Shown piece after piece: positions 39,468-49,005 of a DNA stretch of 64,000 bases. This DNA is from an uncultured Anaerolineales bacterium (lineage in GTDB: Bacteria > Chloroflexota > Anaerolineae > Anaerolineales > UBA6663): contig CAZSNP010000016.1 in assembly GCA_964608265.1 (NCBI GenBank), positions 5,566 through 69,565 of the forward strand, read 5' to 3'. Each line of letters opens with the position of its first letter. Within the stretch, counting starts at the first letter, position 1. A program made the translations under genes and the position numbers. Below the pieces are notes generated by a model, which did no database searches, had not been told where the DNA came from, and was given only the letters and a program-made list of their open reading frames with translations.

Positions 39468-40238
39468 ATGTCGAGCGATTATAGCACGCGCGAATCGGGC
39501 AACTCCGTCGAGGCCCAACCGGTCGCCGCCAACACTGTCGGTGACAACGAATGGGTGAAGGTCAACCCACCGCCTGAGGCATTGGAGCTGCGGGCCGAGG
39601 TCGTTCCCCCGGAGGCGTTGCCGCCGGCCGAGCCGCGGCCCGCCGAAGAGACCGCGCTCGCGCCGGAGCCGCCCCTCGCCATCGAGCTGCCCTCCACCTC
39701 ACTCAGCCTGGAAGCACTGGTGGAGAGTTTGCTGTTTGTGGCCGATGGCCCGGTGCCGGTGGCGCGCCTGGCCGAGGCGCTCGAGGCCAGGCCGCAACAC
39801 ATCGAGGCCGCGCTGGAGGCGTTGGGCCGGCTGTACGCCGATCGCGGTCTGAGCCTGCAACGCGCCAAAGACAAAGTTCAACTCACCACCGCGCCGGCCG
39901 CCGCCGACCACGTGCAGCGCTTCCTCGGGCTGGCGGCCTCCGCGCCGCTGAGCAAGGCCGCCCTCGAAACGCTGGCCATCATCGCCTATCAACAGCCCGT
40001 GACCCGCCCGCAGATCGAGGCGGTGCGCGGCGTCAACTCGGATAGCGTCATCAAGAACCTGCTGACGAAGGGCCTGGTCGAGGAGTCGGGCCGCACCGAA
40101 GGGCCGGGCCGCCCGGTGCTCTACTCCACGACGGCGGAGTTCCTGCAGCACTTCGGCCTGGCCTCGCTCTCCGATCTCCCGCCCCTCAACCTCGACGGCC
40201 TCAAACCTGCGCCACCGACCGAAATCCTGAAGGGCTAA
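39468..40238 (+). CDS. scpB: SMC-Scp complex subunit ScpB
   Basis: LEALVESLLFVA, LSKAALETLAIIAYQQPVTRPQIEAVRGV, GRPVLYSTT.EFL.HFGL.SL.DLP. True start uncertain. Confidence 0.93.
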   Translation: MSSDYSTRESGNSVEAQPVAANTVGDNEWVKVNPPPEALELRAEVVPPEALPPAEPRPAEETALAPEPPLAIELPSTSLSLEALVESLLFVADGPVPVARLAEALEARPQHIEAALEALGRLYADRGLSLQRAKDKVQLTTAPAAADHVQRFLGLAASAPLSKAALETLAIIAYQQPVTRPQIEAVRGVNSDSVIKNLLTKGLVEESGRTEGPGRPVLYSTTAEFLQHFGLASLSDLPPLNLDGLKPAPPTEILKG

Positions 40239-40270: not shown

Positions 40271-41656
40271 ATGAGCCTGGCCGCGCGCGTCCGCAACTTC
40301 ATCGAACAGCGCGGCTTGCTGCGTCCCGGCGACGCCGTCGTCGTCGGCGTCTCGGGCGGGCCCGATAGTCTGTGCCTGCTCGATGTATTGTGCCGCCTGG
40401 ATTGGAGATTGACCGTGCACGCCGCGCACCTCAATCACGGGCTGCGGGCCGAGGCCGGGCGTGAGGCGGAGTTCGTCCGGGCCGAGGCCGCTGCGCGCGG
40501 GGCGAGCTTTCATCTCGCCTCCGTCGACACCCGCGCGTATGCCTCCGCCCACCGGCGCTCGGTTGAAGAGGCGGCCCGCGAGCTGCGCTACGACTTCCTC
40601 GCCCAAGTGACTGCGCAAACCGGCGCCCAAACTATTGCCGTCGCGCACACCGCCGACGATCAGGCCGAGACCGTCCTCATGCACTTCCTGCGCGGCAGCG
40701 GCGTGGCCGGGTTGAGGGGGATGCTGCCAAAATCAGGCAAGGGCGAACAGCCGGTTATCGTCCGCCCGCTGTTGATTGCGGCCCGGTCCGAGGTCGAGGC
40801 CTATTGCACCGAGCGCGGCCTTCAGCCGATGCGCGACCCCACCAACGCCGACACGACCTACTTTCGCAACCGGCTCCGGCATGAACTGCTGCCCGCGCTC
40901 GAAATGTACAACCCCAACATCCGCACGACGCTGGCGCGGACCGCCGAGGTGATGGCGGGCGAACACGAGCTGGTGCTGCGAGCGGTTGACGCGCTGTGGG
41001 ATGAGATCGCGTGCGCCGGGACTGAGGCCATCACCCTCCATCGAGCGCGGTGGCGAGCGCGGAGCGTGCCCGAGCAGCGCGCCTTGCTGCGGCGCGCCGT
41101 TCAACTCCTTCGCCCCGGCCTGCGCGACATTGATTTCGCCCCGCTGGAGGCCGCGGTGCGCTTCAGTCGCGATGCGCAGACTGGCCGTGTGTGCGACCTC
41201 GCCGATGGTCTGTGCCTGGCCGTTGATTACGAGTCTATTGTGCTGCGTGAGTGGTCGGGCGTTACCCTGGAGGCGGCGGTGCCGCAACTCAAGGCGGATG
41301 GCCGGCTGGCCGAGGGGTGGGAGTTCCGGGCTTTTCCGGTGGCCGGATGGTCGCCGGAGGAGTCAACGCCATGGCGCGTCTTCGTGGATGCACGGGCACT
41401 GGCTCAGCCGGTGGGCCTGCGTCGCCGGCGCGATGGAGACCGCTTTCAGCCACTGGGGTTAGCCGGGCACCACATCAAGGTTTCCGACTTCCTCATCAAT
41501 CGCAAAATCTCCGCTCCGCTGCGCGCCGGTTGGCCGCTGGTCGTGTGTGGTGAGGCCATCGTATGGGTGGCCGGACTGCGCCTCGATGAGCGCTTCAGAA
41601 TCACCGACGCCACTCAGGCCGTCGTCGGTCTGGAGTTCGGGCGCACTCCCGTGTGA
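40271..41656 (+). CDS. tilS: tRNA(Ile)-lysidine synthetase
   Basis: GVSGGPDS, HLNHGLR, EEAARELRY, AHTADDQAETVL, RNRLR and the TilS C-terminal domain. Confidence 0.96.
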   Translation: MSLAARVRNFIEQRGLLRPGDAVVVGVSGGPDSLCLLDVLCRLDWRLTVHAAHLNHGLRAEAGREAEFVRAEAAARGASFHLASVDTRAYASAHRRSVEEAARELRYDFLAQVTAQTGAQTIAVAHTADDQAETVLMHFLRGSGVAGLRGMLPKSGKGEQPVIVRPLLIAARSEVEAYCTERGLQPMRDPTNADTTYFRNRLRHELLPALEMYNPNIRTTLARTAEVMAGEHELVLRAVDALWDEIACAGTEAITLHRARWRARSVPEQRALLRRAVQLLRPGLRDIDFAPLEAAVRFSRDAQTGRVCDLADGLCLAVDYESIVLREWSGVTLEAAVPQLKADGRLAEGWEFRAFPVAGWSPEESTPWRVFVDARALAQPVGLRRRRDGDRFQPLGLAGHHIKVSDFLINRKISAPLRAGWPLVVCGEAIVWVAGLRLDERFRITDATQAVVGLEFGRTPV

Positions 41657-41686: not shown

Positions 41687-42019
41687 ATGCAACCAAAGTT
41701 CAACGTCTGGCTTGAAAAGAATAACAAGGTCGTGCTCAGCCCGTGGCGCGTCAGGCTGCTCGAGGCGGTGGCCGAGGCTGGCTCCATCAGCGCCGCGGCC
41801 GAAAAGTTGGGCGTGCCGTATCGCCGCTGCTGGGAGAAGTTACGCGAGATCGAGCACGGCCTCGGGGCCAAGGTGATCGAAACCGCGGTAGGCGGCTCAG
41901 GGGGCGGGGGCGCGCACCTCACCGCCGTCGGGCAGCGCGCCGTCGAACAATTCCACGCCTTCTATGATGGCCTCGACGACGAGGTTGAGCGCCGCTACCG
42001 CGCCGTCTTCCAGGCCTGA
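41687..42019 (+). CDS. ModE N-terminal-type winged-helix transcriptional regulator (no molybdate-binding domain)
   Basis: RVRLLEAVAEAGSISAAAEKLGVPYRRCW, GGSGGGGAHLT. Confidence 0.88.
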   Translation: MQPKFNVWLEKNNKVVLSPWRVRLLEAVAEAGSISAAAEKLGVPYRRCWEKLREIEHGLGAKVIETAVGGSGGGGAHLTAVGQRAVEQFHAFYDGLDDEVERRYRAVFQA

Positions 42020-42070
42020 CTTGTGGCGACGGATTGTGTCACAACGTGGGCACACACGCTTTGTCAGTGA

Positions 42071-42192
42071 CAGCCGCATCCTGAGGGGGTCGCAGCGGAT
42101 GAACGTTGCGCGCGGGCGCTTTCGCCCGCGCAGTCGAGAGACACGCACGACCCCCGCACCGCGGCTTGCGTGCGCGGTGAGATAGCGGACTG
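42071..42192. ncRNA. Candidate structured RNA (three-way junction), identity unknown
   Basis: Closing stem 42071-80/42181-92; GGGGGTCG/CGACCCCC; 9-bp and 7-bp terminal hairpins; lies between convergent genes. Confidence 0.45.
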
Positions 42193-42210
42193 AGGCCTCA
42201 AAGAAAAAAA

Positions 42211-42410
42211 CGCTCTAAATTGGTTTCAAGGAGGTACGTGTCACCCCGAGCGAAGCGGGCGTTCGCAGAACGCACGGTCTCTACCCAAGCCCGGCGCGAT
42301 TTGCGGCCAGCCAGAGATGCCGCGATGCCGTCGTTACGAAGTAACGCCGCATCGTCCGTCGCTCCGCTCCTCGGCATGACATTCGACCTCCCTGGTTTCA
42401 ATAAAGAGCG
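42211..42410. mobile_element. 200-bp non-autonomous MITE-like element with imperfect terminal inverted repeats and a 9-bp target-site duplication
   Basis: AGAAAAAAA at 42202-42210 and 42411-42419. The ends CGCTCT..GGAGGT..TGTCA / TGACA..ACCTCC..AGAGCG match at 18 of the first 25 nt. Internal hairpins; no ORF. Confidence 0.7.
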
Positions 42411-42412
42411 AG

Positions 42413-42434
42413 AAAAAAACGCGCCACCGGCGCG
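42413..42434 (-). terminator. Intrinsic terminator of the Xer-like gene
   Basis: On the minus strand: CGCGCC-GGT-GGCGCG followed by T7. Confidence 0.75.
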
Positions 42435-42470
42435 CCTCCATCCCATGCTCATCTGTGTGATTGCCCGGCA

Positions 42471-43418
42471 TCAAATCCCCGGCTGCACCAGCTTCTTCAG
42501 CTTCATCCCGATCTCGCGCCATTGAATCCTGCTCAGCCCCATGCGCTGCCGGATGCGGTCATAGTCCATCCCGGCCCGCGCATCGCGCACCATGCACGTC
42601 CAGCGGCACATCTCAAAAGAGATGTGTTTGTCGAGGCCGGCGGCCACGGTCACATCTTCCAGCAGGTATTCGAGGCGGCGGGGCGAATACGGGAACACCT
42701 TCTGTTCCGGCGCATATTCGGCGACGTAGGCATTGTAGACGTTGATCCAACTCGTCTCGAGCCGCAGCTTGCGCTCCTTGTACCGATTGCGCGTTTCGTT
42801 GTAGCGCACCCACAGCACCGGCTCCGCGGGGTTGGAGAGATCAATGTGGTTGAGTTCGAGGTTGAGGCACTCACTCTTTTTGATCCCGGTTTGCAACAGG
42901 AGCGAGAGGAGCAGATACGGGCGGATGTCGGGCTTTTCCGCGCGTGCCCACAGGCTCTGGGCCGCCGTGCGCGCGGTCTCGACCTCGGCCTCGGTGAGGA
43001 AGGCGGGCAGGGGGCTGATGACGGTTTGCTGCACGATGGGGAGCGCCGGGTCGCCGGGCAGCACGCCCGCGGCCTCGAGCCAGCGGAAGAACGCCTTGAG
43101 GGAGGTGACGCGCCGGGCGTAGGTTTTCGGGCTGCGGCCCAGTGCCCGTTGCTGCTCGAGCCACTTCTCCAAGTCGCGCGTGGTGATCTGGTTCAGCCCG
43201 CGTCCCCCGCCGAGGAAGGCGGCGAAGAGATTCAGGTCACCGCCAAACGATTTGACCGTGTTCTCGCGCGCGCCCTCACGCCGCATGTGCGCGCACCAGG
43301 CTAGGATGGCGGCCTTCAATGACGAGGCGTCGTGCAGCGCGCTTACGGGGCGTTGTTTGGCGGGCGGCGAGGCTTCAGCGGTCGGCACGCTGAAGAGCGG
43401 CAGTTGCTCGATCATCAC
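42471..43418 (-). CDS. XerC/D-like tyrosine-recombinase-fold protein with degenerate active site
   Basis: SAM-like N-domain (NTVKSF..DL..F, SPKTYARRVTSLKAFFRWL); catalytic domain reads TGIKKSE, SFEMCRWT, MGLS, with no C-terminal Tyr. Confidence 0.9.
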   Translation of the reverse strand: MMIEQLPLFSVPTAEASPPAKQRPVSALHDASSLKAAILAWCAHMRREGARENTVKSFGGDLNLFAAFLGGGRGLNQITTRDLEKWLEQQRALGRSPKTYARRVTSLKAFFRWLEAAGVLPGDPALPIVQQTVISPLPAFLTEAEVETARTAAQSLWARAEKPDIRPYLLLSLLLQTGIKKSECLNLELNHIDLSNPAEPVLWVRYNETRNRYKERKLRLETSWINVYNAYVAEYAPEQKVFPYSPRRLEYLLEDVTVAAGLDKHISFEMCRWTCMVRDARAGMDYDRIRQRMGLSRIQWREIGMKLKKLVQPGI

Positions 43419-43549
43419 GCCGCTACTGTAGTCTGAATCGAAAAGAATGCAAATGAAGCCGGACGCGAGCGCGGATTTCGTTGGCCCTTATCTCCGGGCC
43501 TCGCTCCGCCCCGCTCGGCATGCCACCACCCAGAATGCACCCGCGGGCG

Positions 43550-46500
43550 TCAGGCCTGGGCTTTGGCGTATACGCCGTTGGTCGGCGTGTGCACAGGCAG
43601 GACGACGTTGAAGGTGCTGCCCTTGCCCGGTTCGCTCGTCAACCAGATGCGACCACCGTGCGCCTCGACCAGGGCCTTGGCCACCGACAGACCGACGCCC
43701 GTATCCCCTAGCCCGGCGATGAGAGGCGCATCGGCGCGATAGTGGCGGCTGAAGACGCGCGGTTGATCTTCGGGGGCGACGCCGCCGCCGGTGTCCTTCA
43801 CGGCGATGAGGAGGCCCGAACCGCCGGCGCCGGCTTCGTTGTGCACCTTGAGCATCACCTCGCCCTCCACCCCGGAGGCGTTGCCGGCGTTGCTGAGCAG
43901 GTGGGTGAAGATCTGCCGCAGCGCGTCGCGGTCGGCGCTGACGGCCGGCAGGTTGTCGGCGACATCGAGCCGCAGGTTGATGCCCTTCTCGCGGAACTGC
44001 GCGCCGCAACTGAGGATGGCATCCTCGACGATATCGAAGATGTCGAGGCTCTCGGGCACCAGTTGCAGCGTGCCGGCATCGATATCCGTCACGCGGATGA
44101 GGTCGTTGAGCAGGGCCTCCATGCGCTCGCACGAGGCCTTGATGCGCTCCATGAACTTGCGCTGCAACACGCCCAGGATGCCGACCGACTCGCCGAGCAG
44201 CAAATCCGAATAACCGACGATGGCGGCCAGCGGCTGGCGCAACTCCTGCGACAGCGAGATGATGATCTCCATCGAGGCTTCAGGCAGGAAGGGTCGCGAG
44301 GCCTCCGCCGCCGAGCCGGACGGCGCAGTGAGGGAGGCCTGCATAAGTTGCAGTTGCTGTTCCTTGTCGGCCAGGTCTTTCTGTACCAGGGTGAGGGCGT
44401 GCGTTTGATTGGAAAGCTCGGCCAGCGCCGCCATGGCGTCGGTCAATTCGCGTTCCTTGGTCGCCAACTGCGTCTGCGAGGTGCGCAGGGCCGCTTGCAC
44501 CTCGGCCAATTGCGCGCGCGCGGCTTGCGCCTCGGCTGTGCCGGCCTGGGCCTCCGCCAGTTGCTGATCCTTGCGCGCCAGCGCCGCCTGGGCCTCCGCG
44601 AACTGCGCCCGCATCGTTTCGAATTGCGCCTGCAACCCGGCCAGCTGCGTCATCTGTGCAGCGGCGGCCAGGGCAGCGGCGAGTTCGCCCTCTTTGGTTG
44701 CGAGCAGGGCCCGGGTCTGAGCGAGTTCGGCGTGAGCGGCTTGCAAGCGCGCCTCGGCCTCGGAGGTGGCGCTGCCTTTCCCGGTCAGCCGCTCGATCTC
44801 GAGCCGGGCCTGCTCCAGGTCAGCCCGCAAGCCCTGTTCCTGTTGCACCACAAAATCGTAATCGAGCTGAAGGGTATCGGCGTGAGCTTGCTGAGCTTCG
44901 AGCTTTTCGCGCAGTTCGGTGATTTCGACTTCGAGGGCGGCGCGCGCCTCGGCCAGCGGCTTGGTCTTCTCTTTGACCTCGGAGTGCGCCGCGGCCAATT
45001 CCTGTTGGGCGCGCTCGTACCGTTCGCGCCACTCGGCGGCGGCCTGACGTTCCGTATCGAGCCAGTTGGCCCGCAACTGCGTCACTTCGCTTTCGAGCTG
45101 AGTTCGCTGCGTCGTGACCTCGGCCAGTTCGAAGCGAAGCGTCGCCATCTGTTGCGTCAGGGATTCGACCTGGGTGCGCCACTCGGCCGCCTGCGCCTCG
45201 TCGGCCTGCATCAGCGAGCGCAGTTGCTCCAGCTCATCCTCCAGCTCGGCCCGCCGCGCTTCGGCGGAGCGCAACGCGGCCTGCACCCGCTCGATCTCGG
45301 CGGATTGCGTGCTGAAGGCCGAGGCGTTGGCGCGGAACGGCTCGAGTTCCGAGCGGAACTCATTGCGCTGGCGTTCGGCCTCAGCCAGGCGGTCGTTGAG
45401 GCGCTCGATCTCGGCCTGCTGCGCCTCCAAATCCTGACGCTGCGTTTCCAGTTCGAACTCGGCCGTCTCGAGTTTCTCGCGCAGGTCGTCATCGGTTGCA
45501 GTGGCGGCAGCAGCGGCGGCGGCGACCGGCATCGCCGGCATCTCCAGCCGCAGCTGCTGAATGTCCTGATTCAGCCGCAGCGCTTCCGAGCGCGCATCCT
45601 CCAGCGCGATCCGGAGTTGATCGGCTTCGAGGCGGGCGGTGCGCCGCGCATCCTCGGCGGTCGCGGCCTGAGCCTGAACTTTATCGAGGCTGCGCTGCAT
45701 GCGGTTGAGTTTGCCGTCGCTGCTCAGCACATCGGCCAGCGGGTCGCGGAAGGCAGACAGCAATTGCTCGTCGTCGGCTGTCCAGTCTTTGCGCGTCCCG
45801 CCCGGCAGGCCCATCACCAGCAGCGCGCTCACGAGTTTGTCGTTCAGCCGCAGCGGCAGGACGAGCGTCGGCCCGGTTTGCCCGAGGTTGACGGCGTTGG
45901 TGATGCGCCGCACCTCGGCGGCGTGCTGCTCGGGCGCGATGCGAGTGGGGCTGGGGGCCTCGAGCGCGGCCCGCAAGCGCGGCAGGTCGTTGATCGGCAG
46001 CGGCGCGCCGGGCAGGTGTTGCTCCCTGACCCGATGAAAGGCGTTTTGAACCGCGCTCGCGCCCAACTCATCCGGCGGCGCAATCAACATACACAGATCG
46101 GCGCCACTGGCGTGGGCGACGGCCTCGGTGACCCGCCCGGCTAATTCCTCGGCGTTGGCGGCGGTGTTGAGGCCGGACAGCGCGGCGATCACTTTCGGAT
46201 CGAGGCGCGCCCGGGTCTCGGTCGGCGCGCTGGGGGCGGCCGGCGCGGTCAGCGGCGTGGCCTGGGTTACGGTGGCCGACGGTTGCGCGTTGACCCGGCG
46301 ATAGACGAGCGCCGCGAAGAGCGGCATCGCAATGAGTTCGAGATAGCGAACCGCAAACGGGAACTGCGCCTCGGGTTCGAATTTCAGCGAGTGAAAGACG
46401 TAACCGGGCAGCAGCACCACCAGCACGGCCAGCCCGAGGGGCCAGTTGTCCCGGCGGCGAACGGCGATCAACAATCCACCGGCTACGATGAATACGATAT

Positions 46501-46999
46501 GGGCGAGGAGCCAGCCGCTCTCCCACACGTTATTGGGGTTGGTGTAATACCCGAGGCCGCGATAATCGTTGTTGGCCCAGGCCAGCGCGCTGACCACTCC
46601 GACGGTGAGTGTCAGCAGGCTCAGCCCGAACAAGAGCAGAATATCCGCCCAGCGATCGGCCTGAGGAAAGGCGGCGATCCACACGATCAGCAGCAGGGCC
46701 AGGGCGCTGGCCGTGCGCACGAGCACCGGACTGACGAGGGCGCTGTCGAGTTGCAGCGCTCCTCCCCAGCCCAATAAATCCAGCACGAAAGGCGGGAGCA
46801 GCGCGGCGAGGGCAAGCAGAAACAATCCGATCGCGGCGAACGCCAGACGGGCGCTCACCCAGTTGCGGTCGCGCCACCAGCCGCTGAGGGCGATGGCCGA
46901 GGCCATGCCCAGGACAAAAATCAGGGCGTAGTGATAGAGAAGGCTGAGGGGGAATTCGCCGATCTCGGCGAGGAGGGTAGTCAGGGCTTCAGCCGACAT
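43550..46999 (-). CDS. Membrane sensor histidine-kinase-like protein: about 7 TM, GAF-like domain, long coiled coil, HisKA-like (His replaced by Gln) and HATPase_c
   Basis: H-box SQELRQPL; N-box LLSNA; G1 DTGGG; G2 GVGLSVAK; AHGGRIW. Ala/Glu/Gln/Leu/Arg heptad-rich region at residues ~430-890. Confidence 0.9.
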   Translation of the reverse strand: MSAEALTTLLAEIGEFPLSLLYHYALIFVLGMASAIALSGWWRDRNWVSARLAFAAIGLFLLALAALLPPFVLDLLGWGGALQLDSALVSPVLVRTASALALLLIVWIAAFPQADRWADILLLFGLSLLTLTVGVVSALAWANNDYRGLGYYTNPNNVWESGWLLAHIVFIVAGGLLIAVRRRDNWPLGLAVLVVLLPGYVFHSLKFEPEAQFPFAVRYLELIAMPLFAALVYRRVNAQPSATVTQATPLTAPAAPSAPTETRARLDPKVIAALSGLNTAANAEELAGRVTEAVAHASGADLCMLIAPPDELGASAVQNAFHRVREQHLPGAPLPINDLPRLRAALEAPSPTRIAPEQHAAEVRRITNAVNLGQTGPTLVLPLRLNDKLVSALLVMGLPGGTRKDWTADDEQLLSAFRDPLADVLSSDGKLNRMQRSLDKVQAQAATAEDARRTARLEADQLRIALEDARSEALRLNQDIQQLRLEMPAMPVAAAAAAATATDDDLREKLETAEFELETQRQDLEAQQAEIERLNDRLAEAERQRNEFRSELEPFRANASAFSTQSAEIERVQAALRSAEARRAELEDELEQLRSLMQADEAQAAEWRTQVESLTQQMATLRFELAEVTTQRTQLESEVTQLRANWLDTERQAAAEWRERYERAQQELAAAHSEVKEKTKPLAEARAALEVEITELREKLEAQQAHADTLQLDYDFVVQQEQGLRADLEQARLEIERLTGKGSATSEAEARLQAAHAELAQTRALLATKEGELAAALAAAAQMTQLAGLQAQFETMRAQFAEAQAALARKDQQLAEAQAGTAEAQAARAQLAEVQAALRTSQTQLATKERELTDAMAALAELSNQTHALTLVQKDLADKEQQLQLMQASLTAPSGSAAEASRPFLPEASMEIIISLSQELRQPLAAIVGYSDLLLGESVGILGVLQRKFMERIKASCERMEALLNDLIRVTDIDAGTLQLVPESLDIFDIVEDAILSCGAQFREKGINLRLDVADNLPAVSADRDALRQIFTHLLSNAGNASGVEGEVMLKVHNEAGAGGSGLLIAVKDTGGGVAPEDQPRVFSRHYRADAPLIAGLGDTGVGLSVAKALVEAHGGRIWLTSEPGKGSTFNVVLPVHTPTNGVYAKAQA

Positions 47000-47215: not shown

Positions 47216-47815
47216 ATGAGTGCCGACAGGCCCCCGGCCGAACTTGACCAATGGATCCGACGCGGCTCAGCCGGCGAAGAGCCGGCCTGCGCGGCGCTGT
47301 TCGATCATTACTATCCGCAGGTCTTTCGGCTGTCGTTGGGCCTCCTCAACGATTGGCACGACGCCGAGGAAGTTGCGCAGGACACGTTCGTGTACGCGCT
47401 GAAGAACCTGGCCCGCTACGACGCCACCCGCTCAGCCTTCCGCACGTGGCTGTTCACCATCGCCCTGAGCCGCTGCCGCAACAAGCGCCGGCGCAAGTTC
47501 TTCGAGCTGCTGCCGCTTGAGTCGCTGGCCGCCGACAGCGTGCCGGTGCCGCGCGAAGTCGAGTCAGCCCTCGACCGGCGCGGCCTGAAGCGACAAATGT
47601 GGCAGGCCCTGCAGGCGCTCTCGCCCCAGTTGCGCGAGGCCGTTGTGCTGCGGTATCTCGGCGAGATGCGCTTCAAGGAAGTCGGCGAGGCGTTGGGCTG
47701 CAACCCGAAGACGGCCGAATCGCGCGCGCGGTTGGGCGTGGCGGCGATCCGCAAACACCTCCGCAGCAGCAGCCTGGGGTGGGAGACGGCCCTGAGCGAA
47801 ATGGCGGCCTGGTAA
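47216..47815 (+). CDS. ECF-type RNA polymerase sigma-70 factor
   Basis: DAEEVAQDTF, FRTWLFTIALSRCRN, LSPQLREAVVLRY, region 4.2 KTAESRARLG. Confidence 0.93.
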   Translation: MSADRPPAELDQWIRRGSAGEEPACAALFDHYYPQVFRLSLGLLNDWHDAEEVAQDTFVYALKNLARYDATRSAFRTWLFTIALSRCRNKRRRKFFELLPLESLAADSVPVPREVESALDRRGLKRQMWQALQALSPQLREAVVLRYLGEMRFKEVGEALGCNPKTAESRARLGVAAIRKHLRSSSLGWETALSEMAAW

Positions 47816-47819
47816 ACAA

Positions 47820-48188
47820 ATGAGCTTGCAATCCGACGACCCAACCCTCCGCGTCCTGGCGAGCGCGGTGAACGACATCCACATTCCGGCGCGAGCGGCC
47901 TGGCTCACCGTTCGGGCGACGATGCGAGCGGCAGTCATTCCGGCCCCGCGGCGTTTTGCGCTTCGCTCGGTGATGGCGAGCGTGAGCGCCATCGCTGCCT
48001 TCTTCGTTTTTTCGCAGGCCAGCCTCATCAACGCGCTGGCCGACCCGACGGTGACCGCCGGCTTTGTGCCCGCGCCGCAGGTCGCACTCAGCACGCCGGT
48101 TGCCAGTGTTGCGCAGCCCGCCGCCACGATGACGCCCCAGCCGGGCACCAATGTGGCCCCGATCCCGTTGCCGCCCGATCGCAGCTAA
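47820..48188 (+). CDS. Small single-TM protein, putative anti-sigma factor
   Basis: Starts 4 nt after the ECF stop; one hydrophobic segment and a Pro/Thr-rich tail. Confidence 0.65.
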   Translation: MSLQSDDPTLRVLASAVNDIHIPARAAWLTVRATMRAAVIPAPRRFALRSVMASVSAIAAFFVFSQASLINALADPTVTAGFVPAPQVALSTPVASVAQPAATMTPQPGTNVAPIPLPPDRS

Positions 48189-48192
48189 TCAC

Positions 48193-49005
48193 ATGGAAGA
48201 ACGTCTGCAGAAACTCCTCGCGCAGGCGGGCCACGGCTCGCGCCGGGCGTGCGAGGACCTCATCACGCAGGGCCGCGTGCGCGTCAACGGCGAGCGCGCC
48301 ATCCTGGGGCAGAAGGCTGACCCGGCGCGCGACACCATCACCCTCGACGGCGAGCGATTGGCCGCGCCCGGCAAGTTGATATACATTCTGCTCCACAAGC
48401 CGCGCGGCGTCGTCTCGTCGCTCGAGGCGCAGGGCGAGCGAAAGACGGTGGTGGATTTGGTGCCCGAACACATCCGCCGCAACGCGCGGTTGTACCCGGT
48501 CGGGCGGCTTGATCTCGACAGCGAGGGTGTGATCGTGCTGACGAACGATGGCGACCTGACCAACACCCTCACCCATCCCCGTTACGGCGTGGAGAAGGAA
48601 TACCGCGTTTTGGTGAAAGGCCAGCCGGATGGCGAACGATTGGACGCGTGGCGGCGCGGCGTCGTCATCGAGAACCGCGAGACCGGTGAGCGCTACCGCA
48701 GCCGGCCGGCGAAGGTGCGCCGCGAGGAATCAGGCGCCCGCGAGACCACCTGGTTGCGTGTGATCGTGAAGGAAGGCAGGAAGCACGAGCTGCGCGATAT
48801 CGGCCTGACCCTCGGGCTGCCGGTTGAACGCCTCATCCGGGTGCGGCTCGGTTCGCTGGAGCTGGGTGAGTTGCGGGCGCGTGAGTGGCGGGAACTTACC
48901 CCCACCGAAGTGCGGGCGCTCAAGCGCGAGGGCAGCCAAGGCGACAAGGGCAACGCGGGACCACGACGAAACTCGCCGGGCAAGGCCCAGCGTCCCGGAC
49001 GGTGA
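48193..49005 (+). CDS. rluB: Ribosomal large-subunit pseudouridine synthase (RluB/RsuA family)
   Basis: MEERLQKLLAQAG.GSRR S4 domain, RLYPVGRLDLDSEG, HPRYGVEKEY, EGRKHELR. Confidence 0.9.
   Translation: MEERLQKLLAQAGHGSRRACEDLITQGRVRVNGERAILGQKADPARDTITLDGERLAAPGKLIYILLHKPRGVVSSLEAQGERKTVVDLVPEHIRRNARLYPVGRLDLDSEGVIVLTNDGDLTNTLTHPRYGVEKEYRVLVKGQPDGERLDAWRRGVVIENRETGERYRSRPAKVRREESGARETTWLRVIVKEGRKHELRDIGLTLGLPVERLIRVRLGSLELGELRAREWRELTPTEVRALKREGSQGDKGNAGPRRNSPGKAQRPGR

Follow-up and report, generated by a model that had tools for sequence, protein, structure and literature searches.

The window analyzed here, a 64,000-nucleotide stretch of a contig from an uncultured Anaerolineales bacterium (CAZSNP010000016.1), carries on its minus strand an intact gene for a Xer-like protein that retains the fold of a tyrosine recombinase and has lost most of the residues with which such enzymes cut DNA. 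The reading that we favor, with a probability of about 0.55, is that this protein is a non-catalytic, DNA-binding pseudo-recombinase that derives from a Xer-type tyrosine recombinase and is possibly tethered to the sliding clamp. The components of this reading differ in strength. That the protein is non-catalytic and under selection is very likely, and that it binds DNA is probable, whereas the identity of its tethering partner is a more tentative proposal.

To assign the catalytic positions, the window protein was aligned together with 120 homologues to XerD of E. coli; the XerD sequence used was checked to be 100% identical to PDB 1A0P over residues 3-292. Five of the six residues of the R-K-H-R-H/W-Y set are replaced, leaving Arg-II as the sole survivor. 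Arg-I (XerD R148) corresponds to K180 within the segment QTGIKKSE, and is Lys in all 121 close homologues. His-II (H244) has become E269 within SFEMCRW, a position that is Asp or Glu in 121/121, while Arg-II (R247) is kept in the same segment as R272 (Arg in 120 of 121). His-III (H270) is L295, in an MGL motif whose last residue is Leu or Ile throughout (121/121), and the nucleophile, Y279, is G304, with Gly, Ser or Lys but never Tyr among the 121 close homologues. The β-hairpin that bears the catalytic Lys is two residues longer in the window protein and carries R210 and R212, with uncertain equivalence. An earlier note on this DNA, made from the sequence alone, had read the same four departures from the recombinase motifs (TGIK, EMCRW, MGL and a C-terminus lacking the nucleophilic Tyr), and each of these readings proved literally correct.

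Gap placement by MAFFT near the C-terminus is unreliable, and the test for a nucleophile was therefore repeated with the xG[LI] motif as an anchor. Among 194 close members, the +9 position relative to this anchor is Gly in 113, Cys in 42, Ser in 23 and Lys in 8, with other residues in the remainder, and no Tyr lies within +5 to +13 in 193 of the 194, with one exception. Thus, the conserved Tyr that the earlier note allowed an alignment might yet place at the nucleophile position did not appear. The note had also proposed to check whether the same substitutions are conserved across Chloroflexota. They are fixed in the 121 close homologues, and the same pattern recurs in 78 full-length representatives, mutually no more than 50% identical, that were found by searching 1.8 billion proteins with a profile. 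Because Tyr, both His residues and Arg-I are all replaced, the protein has neither a nucleophile nor general acid/base residues, and a covalent phosphotyrosine intermediate is impossible. The crystal complexes of the Tn1549 integrase with DNA (6en2 and 6emy) were, according to their PDB titles, obtained with R-to-K at Arg-I and Y-to-F changes, so changes of this type are compatible with DNA binding.

Some remote family members (P0141-P0172 and others) form a sub-branch that ends in KY[RL]KLA and has a conserved Tyr located three residues C-terminal to the canonical nucleophile spacing. Arg-I and both His residues are missing there too, and the same column is Leu in the window's clade; this Tyr is a caveat, and we read it from the sequences as a probable buried helix position. 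One member of the sub-branch, P0160, is labeled Candidatus Binatia, which may mean that the group extends outside Chloroflexota or may reflect mis-binning. An active recombinase with non-canonical chemistry or an alternative nucleophile could conceivably be built on this Tyr, on the retained Arg-II and on the Lys in place of Arg-I. Such activity is nonetheless highly improbable, given that the whole family has replaced both His residues and Arg-I, that an acidic residue occupies the pocket, that the window's clade lacks the Tyr in question, and that neither flanking repeats nor a mobile context was observed.

The tyrosine-recombinase fold claimed in the earlier note is borne out by domain searches, structure prediction and structural comparison. 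Pfam recognizes Phage_int_SAM_1 (PF02899, 1.1e-12) and Phage_integrase (PF00589, 3.5e-9), and an AlphaFold2 (AF2) model built from 26 family members has a mean predicted local distance difference test (pLDDT) score of 87.7, with helical domains at residues 34-116 and 143-311 and a disordered segment at residues 1-24 (pLDDT about 40). In a Foldseek comparison of the model with PDB, the top match is XerA, accompanied by Cre, lambda Int, Tn1549 Int and XerH, at a probability of 1.00 and E values of 7e-12 to 1e-7; on this modeled structure, the fold assignment is secure. The best NCBIfam matches, XerD TIGR02225 (86.8 versus a cut-off of 329.6 bits) and XerC TIGR02224 (77.2 versus 335.15 bits), fall below the XerD and XerC equivalog thresholds and are partial, covering the N-terminal two thirds only. 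Truncation is excluded by the C-terminal helix (residues 297-311), which is present and conserved, with Q299, W300, R301, E302, K306, L307 and L310 invariant. Its isoelectric point is 9.55, and the family median is 8.98. A separate observation concerns the best PDB match by sequence (E 5.7e-7), the 401-residue chain 14 of 9i5v, which was deposited as "Ribosome-associated translation inhibitor RaiA". The alignment places residues 20-162 of this chain opposite the core-binding domain and Arg-I region of the recombinase, and the chain looks like a recombinase-like region that is either fused to, or mislabeled as, a ribosome hibernation factor.

The gene belongs to a large and well-maintained family. 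More than 4000 database matches were returned, the best 120 of them at 55-99% identity; the family is present in at least 595 species-representative genomes and contains 159 representatives at 50% identity (E≤1e-30). The named members of the window's branch are all Anaerolineae/Chloroflexota, among them an isolate (Thermanaerothrix solaris), one complete chromosome and Tara contigs of marine origin. Ratios of non-synonymous to synonymous substitution (dN/dS, or omega) were estimated by the Nei-Gojobori method on a codon alignment, using only close, unsaturated pairs. Omega is 0.10 between the window and a 99%-identical contig (L082; dN 0.004, dS 0.040), 0.09 between the window and an 85%-identical relative (L081; dN 0.107, dS 1.16), and 0.03-0.2 for close pairs elsewhere in the family. 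Distant pairs gave values of 0.4-0.57, which were set aside as inflated by saturation of dS in these GC-rich genes. The Xer-like gene is under strong purifying selection, and a dedicated, non-recombining role is supported because the substitutions are fixed family-wide in a gene so constrained.

A recombinase fold with a destroyed active site might also be what remains of a decaying pseudogene or an integrated mobile element, but this explanation is effectively refuted by a reading frame that is intact in hundreds of species, by the omega values, by the conservation of the substitutions themselves, and by flanks made up of core genes. The earlier note had likewise held that the gene is not decaying, and its orthologues are indeed abundant and not eroded. 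No relatives of the family were found in a scan of 2.9 million viral contigs, which speaks against a mobile-element origin; the Xer-like gene is a core chromosomal gene in an envelope and housekeeping neighborhood, not a mobile element. Hundreds of database entries now bear the name "integrase/recombinase XerD" or "site-specific integrase" and almost certainly do not represent recombinases, a misnaming that matters for mobile-element counts and for surveys of dif and Xer.

A feature that suggests how the protein might be deployed is a short motif, QLPLF, at its extreme N-terminus. In the alignment, Q5, L6, P7 and L8 are invariant and F9 is nearly so, while the linker beyond them is almost unconserved: the mean majority-residue frequency is 0.82 in the motif, 0.29 in the linker and 0.64-0.71 in the folded domains, making the motif the most conserved segment of the protein. 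When QLx[LMFI]F was applied as a strict pattern, 2 of 3880 shuffled N-termini and 1 of 665 neighboring proteins matched it, and a slightly looser pattern is unique to the Xer-like open reading frame (ORF) among the 47 ORFs of the window. Distant representatives carry QLSLF (9) or QLPLF (6), and also QLSFF, QLALF, QLDLF, QLELF, QLSMF and others. Across representatives that are no more than 50% identical, positions 1, 2, 4 and 5 are maintained (L 32/37, L 31/37, F 28/37), whereas position 3 varies among Ser, Pro, Ala, Asp and Glu. The motif matches the bacterial β-clamp-binding consensus QL[SD]LF and lies in a segment that is predicted to be disordered (AF2 pLDDT <50). Motifs of this kind are used by Hda, which has 6-QLSLPL-11 in a flexible N-terminal loop (PMC5397184), and by the catalytically inactive polymerase homologue ImuB, which uses QLPLWG (PMC10421592; see also PMC11791113). 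From this resemblance, the sliding clamp (DnaN) is put forward tentatively, at somewhat less than even odds, as the partner of the motif.

Several observations weigh against the favored reading, and above all against its tether. Among 81 species-level loci, 11 have a Q-type motif, 37 have [DET]LPLF and 33 lack the motif altogether. The 33 loci without motif and linker represent about 40% of sampled species and form a coherent Anaerolineaceae clade, as evidenced by a motif-less nearest relative for 26 of 28. In one large lineage, therefore, the tether is dispensable and is not essential to the core function of the family. Gln, the best-conserved residue of clamp-binding motifs, is replaced by Asp, Glu or Thr in the 37 loci of the second group, so the partner of the motif could be other than DnaN. 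Neither dnaN, dnaA nor other replication genes are among the conserved neighbors; dnaN is not encoded in the window; no DNA target emerged from the analysis; no dif-like site with three or fewer mismatches was found in its 64 kb, although dif need not adjoin xer genes; and cumulative GC skew rises monotonically across the window, with no origin or terminus switch. DNA binding itself could be affected by the invariable Asp or Glu where His-II normally contacts the scissile phosphate, which could weaken the DNA contact there.

The mechanism that we propose starts from the two-domain C-clamp with which recombinases wrap DNA, and which the protein retains. The former active site and its surroundings still hold basic residues (K180, R272 and, in the hairpin, R210, R212, K214, R216 and K217), and the protein would most likely bind a specific DNA site or structure without cutting it, as a core function of the chromosome in Anaerolineae and other Chloroflexota. 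In members that have the motif, a partner would recruit the protein, most likely the sliding clamp that is left on new DNA. In this way, QLPLF in the window, QLSLF in distant members and [DE]LPLF in many Anaerolineales could each act, on a disordered tether, to bring the module to newly replicated DNA. Once there, it might mark a site, block or bend DNA, or recruit or evict other factors. In its full form, the proposal would be a pseudo-enzyme of recombinase descent, spread across Chloroflexota, that the β sliding clamp brings to DNA just after replication; taken as a whole, this is less likely than not. If true, it would define a new class of clamp client built on the DNA clamp of a site-specific recombinase, and the protein might have a lineage-specific part in controlling replication, in termination or in organizing the chromosome after replication, analogous in function to Hda, SeqA or XerD at ter in phyla where those are known. 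Binding of the N-terminal peptide to DnaN would make this the first recombinase-fold clamp client and would offer a handle on the chromosome biology of Chloroflexota, which are filamentous and mostly uncultured. No description of this family or of clamp-bound tyrosine recombinases was found in the literature searched.

The genomic neighborhood of the gene was compared by tblastn of every window neighbor against 80 related genome loci, with flanks of up to 10 kb, and by unbiased clustering of neighbors. The earlier note had attached weight to the proximity of scpB, but this linkage is not conserved. In the window itself, scpB is 2.2 kb off on the opposite strand, with tilS and a helix-turn-helix (HTH) gene in between, and scpA is not adjacent. 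None of the 80 related loci has scpB beside the Xer-like gene, including two (L001 and L003) in which the HTH_1 and tilS genes are kept. In L081, the 85%-identical relative, the downstream genes are those of a modABC-like transporter, HTH_1, tilS and then mreB-mreC-mreD-PBP2, without scpB, and adjacency is found only in the same-species contig L082. The gene's proximity to scpB therefore arose recently, by rearrangement in a single lineage, and has no bearing on function.

Other neighbors recur more widely. Histidine kinase orthologues of about 790 amino acids (aa) lie on the same strand at about -3.7 kb in 46 loci (Anaerolineales), and a LytR-CpsA-Psr (LCP) gene is immediately upstream in 57 of the roughly 60 loci that have upstream sequence. 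The window's clade is without the LCP gene, and there the kinase directly abuts the Xer-like gene. The convergent downstream gene is tilS (24 loci) or a DUF47/PhoU-like gene (28 loci), with era, a DNA methyltransferase gene and purB farther away. One deep-branching marine member keeps the downstream ABC transporter-tilS-mreB order with different upstream genes, and another deep-branching member has no shared neighbors. No recurrent replication, SMC (structural maintenance of chromosomes) or FtsK gene was seen among the conserved neighbors of the clustered loci and deep-branching members.

The Xer-like gene is separated from its upstream gene by 80-170 bp, and at many orthologous loci this gap contains a clear promoter, TTGAC(T/A)TTT, 17 nt, TAG(G/T/C)AT, in the same place as the promoter-like sequence of the window. 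Therefore, the gene is probably transcribed on its own, as far as can be judged from these sequences. The earlier note had proposed both a promoter and a terminator. The terminator is supported, by a hairpin followed by U7 with a folding dG of -20.8 kcal/mol and a z of -3.6, while the promoter of the window is read by eye only, with its orthologous counterparts in support; a consensus promoter/terminator scan called neither the hairpin nor a promoter of the Xer-like gene. Because the -10 element of the window ends 9 nt ahead of the ATG, the transcript there may be leaderless or near-leaderless. In about one third of loci (within L012-L078, for example L025, L027 and L024), a conserved, gene-specific 11-nt element, (T)GGCTATGCG(A/C)A, is located 12-18 nt 3′ of the -10 box and about 25-40 nt upstream of the Xer-like start. 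It is absent from the corresponding segment of the window (43419-43549). This class of word occurs 44 times in 1.2 Mb, 27 of them at that promoter position, and its length equals that of one recombinase half-site; the element may serve as an operator for autoregulation or as part of the leader. One locus, in a MAG (L004, 1540-4160), contains two adjacent tyrosine-recombinase genes, of 541 and 328 aa, about 6.5 kb from the dead Xer-like gene. The 328-aa protein has an intact R...HxxRH...GH...Y set and is the sole intact recombinase among the 1.35 Mb of related DNA that was analyzed; the pair probably belongs to a mobile element.

Against this background, the role proposed in the earlier note can be assessed. 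It had inferred a dedicated DNA-binding or SMC-regulating pseudo-recombinase; a dead but selected protein fits a non-recombining, DNA-binding role, and the link to SMC-ScpAB, for which nearby scpB was the only evidence, is not supported. In its strongest form, that link would have the protein bind chromosomal sites and unload or stall SMC as B. subtilis XerD does. The precedent is real, in that PMC12322038, citing Karaboja 2021, describes XerD as a sequence-specific SMC unloader, and lost catalysis is compatible with such a job. However, the one-lineage proximity of scpB, its opposite orientation beyond two intervening genes, the lack of smc, scpA or parB among the conserved neighbors, the lack of a terminus signature in the window, and the absence of a family-level relationship to the streptococcal XerD-like protein together make an SMC regulator unlikely. 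A similarly low probability is given to a non-catalytic partner subunit that fills one half-site of a dif-like site for synapsis or regulation while an intact paralogue carries out strand exchange. Here, XerD and XerC are the best sub-threshold families, the C-terminal helix that docks on the neighboring protomer in recombinases is kept and conserved, and Chloroflexota (Dehalococcoides) have been reported to possess XerC/D homologues and predicted dif sites (PMC3025954). Yet no intact Xer gene is linked in the 1.35 Mb of related DNA, where only the integrase pair of mobile-element type in L004 was found, the window has no dif-like sequence, and the N-terminal docking motif is without counterpart in known Xer partners.

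It is also improbable that the protein is a transcription factor, binding specific sites to regulate its own gene and/or the adjacent envelope genes for the histidine kinase and LCP protein. The order kinase, LCP, Xer-like gene on one strand (46 and 57 loci, as above) would suit such a regulator, as would the 11-nt element of half-site length just 3′ of the promoter. That element is nevertheless missing from the upstream region of the window and from most loci, linkage to the kinase and LCP genes is gone in the deep-branching L084-L086, and the intergenic gaps and separate promoter speak against an operon; the N-terminal motif would be left unexplained.

Table 1. Positions of the Xer-like gene, its parts and its neighbors in the window
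Feature	Coordinates	Strand	Remarks
scpB	39468-40238	+	
tilS	40271-41656	+	
HTH_1 protein gene	41687-42019	+	110 aa
Non-coding gap	42020-42470		450 bp, from HTH_1 gene to stop of Xer-like gene
Terminator-like hairpin	42413-42434	minus	CGCGCC-GGT-GGCGCG, then T7; 36 nt past stop codon
Xer-like pseudo-recombinase ORF	42471-43418	minus	Intact; 315 codons from GTG 43418
Catalytic-fold domain	42486-42992	minus	Residues 143-311; inactivated pocket
Codon of G304	42507-42509	minus	At Tyr position
Codon of L295	42534-42536	minus	Pocket
Codon of R272	42603-42605	minus	Pocket, retained
Codon of E269	42612-42614	minus	Pocket
Codon of K180	42879-42881	minus	Pocket
Core-binding (SAM-like) domain	43071-43319	minus	Residues 34-116; PF02899 at residues 41-117; AF2 helices 34-116, pLDDT >90
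Linker, motif to core-binding domain	43320-43391	minus	Poorly conserved, predicted to be disordered; column conservation 0.29
N-terminal QLPLF	43392-43406	minus	Residues 4-8; candidate β-clamp-binding/partner-docking short linear motif
Promoter-like TTGCAT-16 nt-TACAGT	43425-43452	minus	Read by eye; below scan threshold
Histidine kinase gene	43550-46999	minus	1149 aa; co-directional, upstream; Pfam: multi-transmembrane N-terminus, long coiled coil, HisKA and HATPase_c
ECF-type (extracytoplasmic function) sigma factor gene	47216-47815	+	

The true start of the Xer-like ORF is probably ATG 43415, which yields a protein of 314 aa and is the start chosen by gene callers on the L081 and L082 contigs. 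Many long antisense or overlapping ORFs around the gene (for example 42220-42525 and 42522-43304, both on the plus strand, the latter of 260 aa) have no homologue support and are artefacts of the 66% G+C content. The upstream kinase of the window exceeds its orthologues in length (1149 versus about 790 aa) by a long coiled coil rich in Ala, Gln and Glu, and has no adjacent receiver-domain partner.

Downstream, an Rfam scan of the whole window gave no match, in the structured-looking 450-bp gap or elsewhere. In L081 and in L084/L085, the corresponding position is filled by a modABC-like ABC (ATP-binding cassette) transporter, and positions 42146-42184 of the window contain, on the expected strand, a 13-aa remnant of the C-terminus of its ATPase (85% identity, E about 0.01). 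These matches are suggestive, though not conclusive, of a deletion scar at 42020-42470 where loss of the transporter would have orphaned the ModE-like HTH_1 gene. Farther out, the scpB of the window encodes an N-terminal extension of roughly 80 residues, and a gene with S4 and PseudoU_synth_2 domains (RluB-like) is found at 48151-49002, 8 kb from scpB. The scpB and rluB genes are adjacent in many Firmicutes, and the block of tilS, HTH_1, Xer-like, kinase and ECF sigma genes may have been moved between them by rearrangement.

Comparisons with characterized systems help to place the protein. It shares with XerD and XerC a SAM-like core-binding domain joined to a catalytic-fold domain, at similar overall length, whereas those recombinases are without the N-terminal motif and linker. 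B. subtilis XerD offers a precedent for a DNA-bound Xer protein that acts without catalysis (PMC12322038), but it is a catalytically intact recombinase with a second job, unlike the window protein. Hda and ImuB offer a close analogy of another sort: each is the inactive paralogue of an enzyme and carries, in a flexible terminal segment, a motif of QLxL(F/P/W) type, at residues 6-11 of Hda and 4-8 here. Their folds (AAA+ and Y-family polymerase, respectively) are unrelated to that of a recombinase, and clamp binding, which is demonstrated for them, is proposed for the window protein.

Dead recombinase folds that serve as DNA binders are known from few cases, among them TnsF and an uncharacterized streptococcal XerD-like protein, and Crypton-derived genes in animals are a further example of such reuse. 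The streptococcal protein (NF002685/PRK02436), which is encoded beside scpA-scpB, had been offered in the earlier note as an analogy. Like the window protein, it is a chromosomal Xer paralogue with degenerate active-site motifs, and both have LGL in place of LGH when the validated S. pneumoniae sequence is compared. In contrast, it is only about 245 aa long, has no N-terminal tether and keeps the C-terminal Tyr, and its adjacency to scpAB has no conserved counterpart in the Chloroflexota family. The analogy does not extend to family-level homology, as the window protein has no match to NF002685 at E≤1, where the streptococcal sequence scores 371.8 bits, and the two are 25% identical over 150 aa. 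TnsF of Tn6022-like transposons has a tyrosine-recombinase domain that is inactivated and is reused to select or bend a DNA site (PMC10293859). It has N-terminal zinc fingers and duplicated core-binding domains and resides inside a Tn7-like transposon, whereas the window protein is encoded by a stand-alone core gene with no transposon genes nearby and has a disordered N-terminal linker without zinc fingers. Proteins of this general kind are thus already known, and the present family is separate from both; what sets it apart is a phylum-level lineage that keeps a dead recombinase fold as a strongly selected core gene, with distinctive fixed replacements and a candidate clamp tether.

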